From Raja brachyura (taxonomy: Eukaryota): 64,000 nt of DNA. Below, in pieces: positions 9,181-19,420 of this stretch. The position numbers and the translations under genes are program-made. The notes under the pieces were generated by a model. The model was given only the letters and a program-made list of their open reading frames with translations, was not told where the DNA came from and ran no database searches. Where the stretch lies: NCBI GenBank assembly GCA_963514005.1, contig OY740808.1:6572001-6636000 (forward strand). The letters are read 5' to 3'. Numbering within the stretch: position 1 is the stretch's first letter; each line of letters begins with the position of its first letter.

Positions 9181-10101
9181 ATGGGCAAAACACAGGCTGG
9201 CTGTCTGCAGAAAAGCCTCCATTCAGTTTGTAAATGTGACTGAGAACTTTCACCAGCATCATTTCAACAATATTCAAACTAATCATCCATCTGATGGACA
9301 TCCAGATTCCATTTCAAATAAACAGCTTTTCCATTTCCATCAGTGTTTTTGCCAAGTGATTTCATTTGATCTCTCATTTCTCCCCTTCCAATCTTTTGTT
9401 ACACAAAAATATTTTTAGTGCCTCTTTCCTGGTACTTTCAAGTATTGCCCTGTCAGTTTTACCGTTTAACTTTTCCCAGTTTCAATTAAAGTTTATCACT
9501 CCCTCCATTGACAGTTTCGTCTGGTGAGTACCTCTAACATTTCCTGTTTCTTTCCTGTCATTCACTCGTGGGCTCCAAGCTCCACAGGACTTTGTTAACC
9601 CATATCCATAAATAACAGGAAATTGTGAAGTGTTGGAGCGTTTGATTTACGCGCACTGGATGCATGCAACCCGCATCTTTATACAACTCAATTGGTGCTA
9701 CTTGAAGGAATATTACCCCATAGCAAATGGGTGATTGATGGTAGAAGAAAGGAGAGTTGGAAGTGCCAGAAATAGGGTGGTAGAGAAATCAGTGAGTAAC
9801 AAAAGACTGGCTGTGGATAGAAGCGAGTGAATAGTTCCACGCGATATAGGATATAGTGTTACAGCTACACTGGAAGTGAATATAACCAAGTGCAAGGGCT
9901 GCAGAGAAGCAAGTTGGAATTCATGTTATGTTATGTTGAACTTCCCTCACTTCCTCTGTGATCTCGCTTGCTTGCATTTCCTCTCTCAGTTGCCCGACAT
10001 GTTTGAGAGTGCCAGACACGGCGAAGCACTAACGTTTGAGAGGAGCTAGATCTTTTCTGGAGACCCTGCTCCCCTTCCCCACACTGTTCGCCTCCCCTTA
10101 C

Positions 10102-10153
10102 CGGCGACACTGCAGTCGGCGCAGATGTCGATGCTCCTTAACCTCTTCGACAT
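10102..10153 (-). CDS. GIT2: GIT2 (ARF GTPase-activating protein GIT2) coding exon 1, MSKRLRSIDICADCSVA; remaining exons not found in the window
   Basis: ATG at 10153 and a 52-nt phase-1 exon ending at a gtaagg donor. The peptide matches the recalled GIT2 N-terminus (MSKRLRSSEVCADCS, start of the ArfGAP zinc finger). Head-to-head with ANKRD13A as in human. Confidence 0.92.
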
Positions 10154-11079: not shown

Positions 11080-11172
11080 ATGTGTACACTGGAAGACATC
11101 AGGAACAAATACAGGCTCCATCAGCTCGTGTGGCACAACCGGTACAGAGAGGTCGAGAAGGAACTGAAGCAG
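11080..11172 (+). CDS. ANKRD13A: ANKRD13A exon 1 (MCTLEDIRNKYRLHQLVWHNRYREVEKELKQ); alternative in-frame ATG at 11062
   Basis: Matches the ANKRD13 YxLHxLVWxN motif; CAG|gtaagt donor. Confidence 0.88.
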
Positions 11173-13544
11173 GTAAGTTACTGCGAGAGAAAGTCTCCAT
11201 TTACACCATGTCGTCCCATCAGTACGAACGGAAGTCGTCTTTGCAGTTGTTGTTGTTGGGGAAATCCCAACACCTTCCTGGATTGTTTTAACTGACTTTG
11301 AGGTAGCTACGTTATAAAAATAAACTCTTACCTAAATTACTGATCCTAGCCAAGGCCTGATTTTCCAGTCATCGCTATGGTAGGGACAGATTGTGAGTGA
11401 ATACAGTTGAAGCTGAATTGATCATATAACCATATCACAATTACAGCATGGAAACAGGCCTTCTCGGCCCTTCCAGTCCGTGCCGACCATTTATTTTCCC
11501 CTAGTCCCATCTACCTGCACTCAGACCATACCCCTCCATTCCCTTCCCGTCCATATACCTATCTACTTTACTTTTAAATGTTAAAATCGATCCTGCCTCC
11601 ACCACTTCTGCTGGAAGATCATTCCACACAGCCACCACAGGCATTCCTCAATTCCCAATCACTTAATCAAAACGCTAACCTGTGGTGTTCTTATCAGAAA
11701 ACAATTCAAAGTTAATAAATGGAGATACAAGGAACTGCAGATGATGGAATCTTGAGCAAAACAAAGTGCTGGAGTAACTCCATGCGTCAGGCAGCATCTG
11801 TGGAGGGAATGGATAAGAGTGACGTTATGCATCAGGAGAAAATGTTCTTCAGACTGGAAGGGTCCTTATGTCTTGATACCTGGTTAAGATGCTGGGGATG
11901 ATTAATCGAAACATGGGTTGAATAAGTATTCATGATGGGGACACGAGAGAATGCAGATGCTGGAATCTTGAGCAAAAATCAGGCTGCTGGTAGAACTTGG
12001 GGTTATGTAGCATCTCTGGAGGGAAATGGTCAGACAGCATTTGTGGTTGGGATTCGTCTTCATACTCCACCTGTCCTTCCTTTCTTCTTAGGTTCCACAA
12101 TTTGTACCCTTTTGTCTTCACTCATCATCACCCGCGGTGATTACTATCTCCACCACCTGACCTGTCTGGCAACCAACACCTCCAGTAGACACAAAATGCC
12201 AGAGTAACTCAGCGGGACAGGCAGCATCTCTGGAGAGAAGAAATGGGTGATGTTTCGGGCCAAGACCCTCCACCTGGATCCACCTATGACATTGGCAGTT
12301 CTTGCCCCACCTCTACCCCTCTTGTCTCTACCAGCTATCTCGTTCTTCTCTAGTCTGAAGGAAGGTCCCATCTCAAAATTTTATCAGCTGTCCATTTCCC
12401 ATCACCGATGCTGCCTGACCATTGAGTTCCTCCAGCAGTCTGGTTTTGCTAATGTATTCATGATACTGGATACTGATTACTGGTTGTATGAGCAAATAAA
12501 TGACACAATGGATGTAAGTTCATAATTAGTCACTGAGGTTACCGTGATTAACAATTTAATTGATGGTTTAAGCAAGACCTTTTGGAATTAAGTGGGGGGA
12601 AACAAAACAAAAAAATATAGTTACGATAAGAAAATTATTCAGCACAGAAGTTGCACATTCTGTCTTTTGTGGTTGTGCCAAATTTTCACTCCATTTTCCC
12701 AAATGCCACGTAAATGTTTCCATCCATTTCCACGTTAAAAAAACCACTGTTAAACTACACTTGCAGGTATTACGTCACAGAATGTTACAATTTGCTGTTT
12801 CAATCTTTGCAAATTAATCACCCCCTGGGTTTTGCTAACTGCTTTCACAGTTTGCATCATCTGGTTAAGGAAATCCCTTAGAATGGAAACAATTTCTTCC
12901 TACTTAATTGAGTCCCTTTGCAATCCTTTGCTCTATGCAAAACAACTTGGGTCTCTTCAGTCCTTCATGCCTATTAGTATCCTAATGACTCTTGCCTGGA
13001 AAGCACTTGACATCCTGAAGTGCAGTGCACAGAATTAAAAATACAGTTTCAGCTGTTCCGAAACAGGTATTTTGTAAAGGCTTTGCGATCTATAAAGTCG
13101 ACCATTCTTTTCTAACATTCTAATATAGTCACTTTCAAAAATTTGTCTTAAAATACAGTCCCATTCTTGTATTTTGAATGTAAGCAGTTAATTTTCTTTA
13201 AAATGCACTGCTTCACATTTCTCTGCATTCTCCCCATTTTTATCTCCCCCCCCCCCCCCCCCTTTCCTTCTACCCACTATCCTTGCCTGCATTTCACTCC
13301 CCACCTTCAGATTCCACCATTTGCATAATTTTTAGACTTATTGCCTCCAGTCTTGGTTTTGTATCTCCACCCTTCTACTCCTCCCCCGATTATCTGCCAC
13401 CTAATCACTCCTTACCTGGATCCACCCATCAGTCTGACCTGAAATGTCACCTATCGATGCTCTCCAGAGAAGCTGCAGGACCCTCTGAGTTACTACAGCA
13501 TTCCTTGAATCCACCTATCATTTGCCAGCTCTTGCTCCACCACT

Positions 13545-15777: not shown

Positions 15778-16098
15778 GGGGCGGCACAGTGGCAGCAGCA
15801 GCAGCGGCGATAGAGTTGCTGCCTCTTTGCGCCAGAGACCCGGATTCGATCCTGACTACGGGTGCTGTCCATACAGAGTTTCTATGTTCTCCCCGTGACT
15901 GCGTGGGTTTTCTCTGGATGCTCCAGTTTCCTCCACACTTCAAAGACACACAGTTTGTAGCTTAATTGGATTCGGTAAAGATTGTAAATTGTCCCTACTG
16001 TGTAGAATAGTGCTAGTGCACAGGGATCACTGGTCGACACGGGCACGGTGGGCTGAAAACTCTGTTTCCGCGCTGTATCTCTAAACTAAACTAAACTA
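15778..16098 (+). mobile_element. tRNA-derived SINE (HE1/V-SINE-like)
   Basis: A/B-box head, V-domain-like core, CR1-like tail, (ctaaa)n end. Confidence 0.85.
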
Positions 16099-16272
16099 TA
16101 GTACCCTCATGTTCCTGTTGGGAGAGTCTACGACTAGAGGTCATAGCCTCAGAATTAAAGGACGTTCTTTTAGGAAGGTTGATGAGGAGAAATTTATTTA
16201 GTCAGAGGGTGATGATTCTGTGGAATTTGCTACAGAAGGCTGTGGAGGCTGTCAATGGATATTTTTAAGGCC

Positions 16273-16463
16273 TCCTGTTTCGTGTCCATCTTGTTACAAA
16301 TGTTGGCCTCGTTGTCATCGTCCGTCCTGAAAAGGACGCAAGCTTCCGGCGACAATCAGTGGGAGCCATCACTTGCCGCAATAGATGATGGTGGTAGCAG
16401 AATTAGCTCGGGATTCTTCCCGTTTCCAGCCCCGCGACGTGGACGCTTCTGCCAAGGGGCCTC
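16273..16463 (-). mobile_element. 191-bp non-autonomous Vingi/Ingi-like retroelement with 9-bp TSD, nested in a CR1 fragment
   Basis: tttaaggcc at 16264-16272 and 16464-16472; 5' HDV ribozyme; short ORF start MAPTDCRRKLASFSGRTMT; 3' end ...GGACACGAAA. Confidence 0.7.
16395..16461 (-). ncRNA. HDV-like self-cleaving ribozyme (predicted, 67 nt)
   Basis: Minus strand reads GGCCCC U UGGCAGAA GCG UCCACGU CGC GGGGCU GG AAA CGGGA AGAA UCCCG AG C UAA UUCUGCUA. This gives P1, P2, P3, L3, P1.1, P4 and J4/2 with the catalytic C. Confidence 0.9.
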
Positions 16464-16703
16464 TTTAAGGCCGAGATTGATAGATTCTTAATTAGTGCAG
16501 GTGTCAGAGGTTATGGGGAGAAGGCAGGAGAATGGGGTTAGGAGGGAGAGATAGATCAGTCATGATTGAATGCGGGAGTAGACTTGATGGGCCGAATGGC
16601 CTAATTCTACATTCCTTATGACCATCTGATGAGACATACTGAGCCATTTTATAAATGGATTTTTTGTACTTCATGTGGGTTAATCATCACTTTTCTCCAA
16701 CAG

Positions 16704-16839
16704 CATGACGTTGAAACTGTTGATCCACGAGGCCGGACACCATTGCACCTCGCCGTCTCTCTTGGACACTTGGAATGTGTGGAAGTGCTGCTTCAAAACA
16801 ATGCTTCTGTCGTCAAGGAGAATGCCAAGGGATGGACAG
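16704..16839 (+). CDS. ANKRD13A: ANKRD13A exon 2 (ankyrin repeat, [18 protein letters not shown])
   Basis: ttttctccaacag acceptor, gtcagg donor, 136 nt. Confidence 0.95.
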
Positions 16840-18649: not shown

Positions 18650-19420
18650 TTCCAGCCAGCGAAGGATTTTCTCCTGGATTCCCTTTGACTCTAGTTTAGC
18701 CAAGGCTCCTTGATGTCATTCTTCATCAAATGCTGTCATGGGCCATTGCACTCATTTTGCCTCTGGATTTTACCTCTTTCGTCCCATGTTTGGACTAAGG
18801 TTGAGTGACTTTGGCGGAACCCAAGCTGAACCTGTGCAAGCATGTTGCTTCTCAGCAAGCACCACTTGATAGCACTTATGATTATCCCTTCTGCCAATTT
18901 GCTGATGATCAAGTGGAGAGGTAATTGGTTGGTTGGATTTGCCCCAGGAGGGGTTGGATTTGTGGGCAAGACGTTCCTGAGCAATTCTCCACATTGTTGG
19001 CTGGACGCCAGTATTGTAGCCACACTGGAACAGCATGTACCAAGGCATGGCAAGTTCAAAAACACAGGTGTTCGGTACGATTGCTGGAATGTTATCGAAG
19101 TCCACAGCCTTTGATGTATCCATAGTCATTTCTTGACATCACATTGAGTGAATGAAATTGGCTGCTGCTTCTTGCGTATGGCGTGCACAGCCTAAAGTTG
19201 TGGAACAATTTGTTCTATTTGATCTTATTAGATTGTGCACGCCGGGTTGATTGCATTTGTCGAAACAAGCGGACCACGTGAAGGTTGCAATCTTCCACCC
19301 CATCAAATTTCTGTTTGCACTGATGTGCTGAGCTCCCCATCTATATGAGTGAGGATATTTGTGGGAGCCTTGTCCTCCAGTGAGCTGTTTAATTGTTCCA
19401 CACCAAGCATGACTGGATGT
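18650..19420 (-). mobile_element. Decayed CR1/L2-group RT fragment
   Basis: Frameshifted DNIPAIV, PTMWRIAQ and QLGFRQSHS motifs. Confidence 0.65.

Follow-up and report, generated by a model that had tools for sequence, protein, structure and literature searches.

A 67-nt stretch of Raja brachyura DNA, lying in an intron on the strand opposite to a protein-coding gene, can be drawn in the fold of HDV-like ribozymes. The questions raised by this locus are whether the fold is a genuine ribozyme, what it belongs to, and whether it is related to ribozymes known elsewhere. The window below is the whole stretch of DNA analysed, 64,000 nt of contig OY740808.1. As set out in the following sections, the fold is very probably the 5′ end of a 184-bp non-autonomous derivative of a Vingi-type LINE, whose RNA it likely excises at G1.

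The fold and its locus

The first-pass annotation had placed all elements of the HDV fold on the minus strand, and every helix was found there (Table 1), with a C at the proposed position of the C75 equivalent in J4/2. P1 consists of a G.U pair followed by 5 Watson-Crick pairs; a P1 of 6 or 7 bp is normal for HDV-like ribozymes (PMC4908430). J1/2 is 1 nt long and P2 includes one G.U. The helices P1, P1.1, P2, P3 and P4 form a nested double pseudoknot in the correct order, and the core bases are present, namely the G1.U wobble, the U, C, C and G of L3, and the catalytic C of J4/2 followed by two purines.

The Rfam model of the CPEB3 ribozyme (RF00622) scored 36.4 bits at this fold (gathering threshold 35, E 4.6e-6), its sole gathering-level match in the window. 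A custom HDV descriptor matched the window at two positions (16461 and 19300) versus one match in 5.1 Mb of shuffled sequence, and these counts rule out a chance fold as the source. Nested folding of the ribozyme was unremarkable (z -0.54), in line with a double pseudoknot.

Table 1. Features at and around the ribozyme locus (window coordinates)
Feature	Position	Strand	Remarks
ANKRD13A coding exon 1	11081..11173		
Older high-copy repeat hosting the F1 insertion	16091..16630	plus	Other copies of that repeat lack the insertion
TSD, 3′ copy	16262..16272	minus	
Short degenerate (AAG)n tail remnant	16273..16277	minus	
Body of bipartite non-autonomous LINE, family F1	16278..16461	minus	184 bp
3′ part: parent LINE last codons, stop, 3′ UTR	16278..16308	minus	Sequence match
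First 19 codons of parent LINE ORF	16313..16369	minus	Retained up to start of endonuclease motif
HDV-like ribozyme fold, first 67 nt of element	16395..16461	minus	G1 at 16461, C75 equivalent at 16406
P1	16461-16456/16433-16428	minus	6 bp
P2	16454-16447/16402-16395	minus	8 bp
P3	16446-16444/16436-16434	minus	3 bp
L3	16443-16437	minus	7 nt
P1.1	16442-16441/16427-16426	minus	2 bp
P4	16422-16418/16413-16409	minus	5 bp
TSD, 5′ copy	16462..16472	minus	11 bp, one mismatch; predicted 6-bp hairpin with G1-C4 (16472-16458)
ANKRD13A coding exon 2, ankyrin repeat	16704..16839	plus	F1 copy about 240 bp upstream, antisense
Family F12 short element	19165..19301	minus	P4-less minimal HDV fold 19300-19249, C75 equivalent 19259, AAG tail

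The fold heads an element assigned here to family F1 (the labels F1 to F12 were coined in this study), the 5′ part of which stops at element position 150 (16312). Cleavage had been predicted 2 nt away from the boundary defined by the target site duplication (TSD). A duplication flush with G1 fits better (16472-16462 versus 16272-16262), and this reading is preferred because TSDs in the family are 10–16 bp long. The repeat into which the element was inserted presumably has a CR1-type 3′ end.

The placement of the fold in intron 1 of ANKRD13A, antisense, was confirmed by the two flanking coding exons. The best named matches of one exon of the host gene were chondrichthyan ANKRD13A; ANKRD13D, first suggested by motifs, was dropped on this ground. 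A divergent gene start at 10100-10152 (minus), which we take to resemble the N-terminus of GIT2, lies head-to-head with ANKRD13A in a CpG island. Since the ribozyme belongs to an element with thousands of copies, its location in ANKRD13A is incidental.

Family F1 and probable cleavage by its ribozyme

A search of the genome, which had been proposed for copy number, showed that the fold heads a repeat with 2801 first-look candidates; 40 of 40 scored matches were near full length, with 92–100% identity. The 36-nt core from P1 to P1.1 occurred in 143 exact copies genome-wide, and its reversed control in none. Sampled words were present at 63–75% in DNA runs of 7 organisms, one of them possibly the source species; no RNA run was recorded as containing them, which has no bearing on cleavage.

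An unbiased sample for the 5′ boundary was obtained by choosing 30 loci by the 3′ 66 nt alone, from 40 scored of 1982 candidates. The element started at G1 in 24 of these loci, within 2 nt of it in 3, and was shorter in 3. TSDs were flush with G1 in 22, 1 nt off in 2 and not detected in 6, as judged by a finder that tolerated one mismatch and favoured the longest match, which biases it toward offset 0. Among 50 unique F1 copies, a TSD was detected in 39, and the tail was (AAG)n. No tRNA-derived head was found in F1, and identity as a tRNA-SINE was thus ruled out. The copy in the window is an ordinary member of a ribozyme-headed bipartite LINE family.

The catalytic C75 was invariant in the 43 ungapped F1 copies. 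All pairs of P1, P2, P3 and P1.1 were intact in 24 of the 43, and the core bases as well in 20; the copies examined were the best-scoring ones, so that these shares are upper estimates. P4 had been described as a perfect helix. It is present with 5 bp in the window, and its perfect pairing is private to this copy, resulting from a change at 16421 seen in 1 of 43; 37 of 43 copies pair 4 of the 5 positions. Non-CpG divergence was 1.4% in the ribozyme versus 2.8% in the remainder of the element, and shared non-CpG variants within the ribozyme were confined to J1/2 and L4. Two of 5 other F1 copies scanned passed the RF00622 threshold, the range in F1 being 26–38 bits. Covariation of the pairings, another check proposed earlier, was found between families only and not within F1, the copies of which are too young; conservation of pairing among F1 copies is therefore no test of the ribozyme.

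The life cycle that we propose would begin with transcription of the element within longer host read-through transcripts. The ribozyme would then cut 5′ of G1 in a Mg2+-dependent reaction through C16406 and free the element RNA, the 3′ end of which would be recognised by the protein of the parent LINE, so that full-length copies would be re-inserted through target-primed reverse transcription. As for the window copy, it would be a passive insertion, antisense in intron 1 of ANKRD13A, and would not cut the host pre-mRNA. Cleavage by the F1 ribozyme is likely by analogy with L1Tc/NARTc/SIDER and R2; the L1Tc/NARTc/SIDER ribozymes cleave in vitro (PMC4035085). No pile-ups of read starts or ends were found at the element in four sequencing runs mapped; a polyA RNA-seq run of another organism, a library type unsuited to this purpose, covered the element on both strands with no such pile-up.

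It is possible, though we rate it somewhat below even, that in its native context the window copy cleaves slowly or not at all while the family ribozyme is functional, the TSD hairpin capturing G1-C4 before the 3′ strand of P1 has been made. This hairpin is predicted at a probability near 1 in the nascent RNA, and the probability of P1 fell from 0.5 to 0 in a nested model on adding 20 nt of flank. However, the nested model takes no account of the pseudoknots by which the native fold is stabilised, the hairpin and P1 are about equal in energy (-8.6 versus -9.2 kcal/mol in a pseudoknot-free model), and C5-C6 would stay free as a toehold. Strong pairing of the flank was predicted in 10 of 44 F1 copies in the nascent-RNA model. 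For the window copy, the earlier term "probably active" is accordingly less sure, because its TSD is predicted to form a hairpin with G1-C4 of a stability near that of P1; the construct proposed for an in vitro assay (16380-16490) includes this hairpin. Inactivity of this kind concerns this locus only and is compatible with the ribozyme as the 5′ end of a self-excising element RNA.

The precise 5′ start could alternatively be due to an internal promoter, as with Pr77. The motif would then mainly be a promoter, or an element for translation or protein binding, with RNA starting at G1 by transcription and cleavage being secondary. The uniform start at G1 fits promoter and cleavage alike, the first 77 nt of L1Tc act as both promoter and ribozyme (PMC8256844), and IRES-like roles have been proposed (PMC6765202). 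We nevertheless regard this account as improbable: no tRNA head was detected, and stem sequences change between families while the pairing and the catalytic C persist, which indicates that selection acts on the RNA structure and not on a motif in the DNA.

The parent LINE and its ribozyme-headed relatives

Two long copies, L139 and L151, open with the ribozyme and UTR of F1, continue through an APE endonuclease, a reverse transcriptase (RT) and a C-terminal Cys/His motif, and share the 3′ end and tail of F1. L139 is approximately 3.1 kb once two nested inserts are removed, and all long copies found are broken. With the LINE-specific part as the query, 11 loci were obtained, of which L160, L167 and L168 also share the F1 5′ junction. 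F1 consists of the ribozyme, the UTR minus about 40–50 nt and 19 codons, followed directly by the last codons of the LINE and its 3′ UTR. Both ends are thus LINE sequence with the middle deleted, and TSDs and a simple-repeat tail are present, as in bipartite non-autonomous LINEs of the SIDE type. F1 is therefore an internal-deletion derivative of an APE+RT LINE of about 3.1 kb without RNase H. The earlier reading of the motif as an HDV-like ribozyme heading a non-LTR retroelement is supported by the family, by its 5′ boundary at G1 and by this parent.

Pfam domains were read from intact relatives because, of four pieces of the F1 long copies, which have broken frames, three gave no match. Seemingly full-length relatives of about 900–1010 aa had APE and RT domains, with no RNase H listed. 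The closest proteins of L139 and L151 include one of Strongylocentrotus purpuratus (62–66%), a species for which there are reports of HDV-like ribozymes. Three other searches led elsewhere. With PF14529, the 30 loci taken from 150 scored matches were of another LINE type and none matched F1. A pattern requiring a non-SINE continuation, in which the junction was assumed one base off, gave only 2 internally deleted short copies. A pattern for the endonuclease motif gave 10 matches, 7 of them by chance and 3 leading to family F2. Loci L061-L090 belong to a young and abundant LINE family, presumably of Nimb/I type and unrelated to F1, in which long endonuclease frames are open.

A single ORF, APE and RT, absence of RNase H and a length of about 3 kb are the architecture of Vingi, and the parent LINE fits this type, a label based on architecture and on motifs and not on a reference tree. 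Affiliation with RTE or another single-ORF clade is improbable. RTE elements likewise have a single ORF, bipartite derivatives and 5′ HDV-like ribozymes (PMC5786205), and bipartite derivatives are reported there solely for RTE, Ingi, Vingi and R2. However, the size, single ORF and lack of RNase H match the description of Vingi (about 3.1 kb, single ORF, APE+RT, no RNase H; PMC13708176). The close relative P0021 (51%) is from Anolis carolinensis, host of Vingi-1_Acar. The long copies were retrieved through an endonuclease motif that we associate with Vingi, and their Cys/His motif, which we take to be I-group-like, was also counted against RTE and other clades.

The Vingi-type parent is one of a larger set: HDV-type folds, with differing stems, stand at the start of about a dozen Vingi-type families of this genome. 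One representative of each of 12 families was parsed and 8 fitted the HDV descriptor; the descriptor itself requires pairing, and the evidence lies in the diversity of stems and the position at element starts. Between families, P1 positions 3–7 showed 2–5 pair types, P3 a flip between G-C and C-G, and P1.1 a change from C-G to U-A. The descriptor failed on single decayed copies (F4, F6 in 3 of 3, F10, and one each of F2, F7 and F11), the folds of which were assigned from Rfam scores or by visual reading.

F2 (L093, L095, L099, L104/L108) comprises bipartite elements of about 310 bp and a 2.9-kb long copy. F7 (L191, L193-L199) comprises short elements of about 120–170 bp with a P4-less HDV fold, an AAG tail and TSDs. 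F12, with 1116 first-look candidates and TSDs in sister copies, has, like F7, only 4 nt in place of P4; both are known here as short elements only. The F12 copy at 19301 is unrelated to F1, and one base is missing from the 3′ strand of its P1. Two such different ribozyme-headed elements, antisense in successive introns (16461 and 19301), might suggest a ribozyme recruited to regulate ANKRD13A or an antisense transcript, which is very unlikely as each is an unexceptional copy from a family with more than a thousand candidates, and the F1 copy lies inside another repeat on the non-coding strand and is 4.9% from the column majority versus a mean of 2.9%.

Three further families showed individual features. 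In F9 (L147, L152), P1.1 has U-A in place of the usual C-G, with a C.C neighbour. In both copies of F5 (L144, L145), RT-region sequence precedes the ribozyme, perhaps as a tandem or rearranged insertion. The F4 protein (L153:1883-3616, minus) is 86–89% identical to eel and cyprinid proteins, and horizontal transfer between bony and cartilaginous fish is suggested by this similarity.

Orientation of the ribozyme was surveyed in the 22 non-F7 loci among the best 30 RF00622 matches. Vingi-type coding sequence 5′ of the ribozyme was on the opposite strand in 11, in forward orientation only in 5, and without protein match in 6. In inverted units, the ribozyme and 20–200 nt downstream are reversed relative to the LINE body (L167, L168, L176, L177, L182-L184, L187, L206). 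TSDs enclosing the inverted unit were seen in L168, L176, L177, L182, L184 and L187, and also in L183 and L206; a credible TSD was counted in 6 of 15 inverted copies, two more 7-bp matches being discounted. These copies look like 5′ inversions by twin-priming.

The CPEB3 ribozyme and other known systems

Of 59 candidates scored with RF00622 in this genome, 41 matched, whereas 14 control genomes yielded no match. The best scores of the genome were in F2 (56–66 bits, up to 65.8), followed by F6 (41–60.0) and F11 (up to 54); F7 reached 35–37, F3 24 and F10 22, and F4, F5, F8 and F9 had no match at E 1. Contamination by mammalian DNA was excluded, as F2 and F6 are multi-copy, flanked by TSDs and joined to LINE coding sequence.

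F6 (L173, L175, L181, L183, L186, L205, L206) is an old Vingi-type family. Despite decay, 54 of the 67 positions in L173 and 55 in L175 agree with the Rfam consensus (counted by eye). F6 shares both P4 strands and a weak one-pair P1.1 with the CPEB3 ribozyme, and one P2 pair is changed on both sides; about five core positions and the L4 loop differ from the Rfam consensus. P4, a helix under no catalytic constraint, varies freely among the other families, so that convergence of F6 and CPEB3 in this helix is unlikely. A forward bipartite copy with a TSD, L181, links the family to a Vingi-type ORF, as do inverted F6 copies, the bodies of 3 of 4 of which match P0019/P0020 at 54–66%; 2 of the 4 have a TSD.

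From these data, we consider it likely, with reservation, that Vingi-type LINEs as a rule start with an HDV-like ribozyme and that the CPEB3 ribozyme is a domesticated copy of one. Judged from the ribozyme itself, such a retrotransposon is the likely source of the CPEB3 ribozyme. Inverted 5′ fragments of 90–125 nt, common among the Vingi-type elements here, may be the route to an orphan intronic ribozyme. According to a 2021 paper, the CPEB3 ribozyme is "not found outside of mammals" (PMC8233481), and human DNA holds traces of Vingi, X12_LINE (PMC5753468). A co-option of conserved vertebrate ribozymes from mobile elements has already been proposed in general terms, the source being unnamed in the text available (PMC7761336).

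Among the literature matches listed, there was no report of a Vingi ribozyme or of a source element for the CPEB3 ribozyme, although supplements of ribozyme and Vingi surveys, Repbase, Dfam and patents may list such motifs, and no match joined CPEB3, ribozyme and Vingi. Neither did those matches contain such an HDV-like ribozyme from a cartilaginous fish, in agreement with the first-pass annotation. In the portions available, PMC5035012 (on R2) mentions ribozyme and shark once each, a 2026 ribozyme screen has neither "shark" nor "SINE", and PMC10274809, PMC3391268 and PMC3277949 hold nothing further on such ribozymes. The mechanism is not new, as trypanosomes and insects are known to have LINE derivatives headed by a ribozyme.

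The value of the locus lies in its leads: ribozymes in several Vingi-type families, P4-less forms heading short elements of a vertebrate and a likely source of the CPEB3 ribozyme. If true, Vingi, a clade that gene-writing platforms now employ (PMC13708176), would generally carry a 5′ ribozyme, hundreds of copies of it being intact in a single vertebrate genome, and abundant short elements of vertebrates would start with minimal HDV folds that lack P4. The CPEB3 ribozyme, which has a link to memory in mammals, would gain a concrete source, and families of the F2/F6 type would supply the outgroup hitherto lacking for its evolution, making its origin testable.

The closest parallels are NARTc/RIME/SIDER and L1Tc/ingi, in which short internally deleted LINE derivatives keep the 5′ HDV-like ribozyme and the 3′ end of the parent; Ingi is the sister clade of Vingi (PMC4035085, PMC5786205). 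F1 is different from these trypanosomatid systems in its vertebrate host, RNase H-less parent, (AAG)n tail and 6-bp P1. With Vingi-1_EE and Vingi-1_Acar, the parent LINE shares a length of about 3.1 kb, a single ORF, APE+RT, the lack of RNase H and bipartite derivatives. The available text of PMC5786205 names six clades that have 5′ ribozymes, and Vingi is none of them, whereas about a dozen Vingi-type families carry one here. R2 and its SIDEs likewise have a 5′ HDV-like ribozyme that defines the element end and internally deleted derivatives. However, R2 is site-specific for 28S rDNA and uses a restriction-like endonuclease, whereas the Raja elements are at scattered sites with TSDs of 10–16 bp. 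F7 and F12 resemble the theta ribozymes, which are P4-less minimal HDV-like forms described from gut phages; F7 and F12 head vertebrate short retroelements, and the element at 16461 has a normal P4.

The window element shares P2, P3 and 6 of 7 L3 bases with the CPEB3 ribozyme. It differs in P1, which has 6 bp, in P1.1, which is complete with 2 bp, and in P4, whereas P1 of CPEB3 has 7 bp and its P1.1 one pair. Unlike the Raja families, which are dispersed repeats, the CPEB3 ribozyme is single-copy, sense in its intron and conserved. The F1 ribozyme is thus a homologue of the CPEB3 ribozyme and not a member of it.
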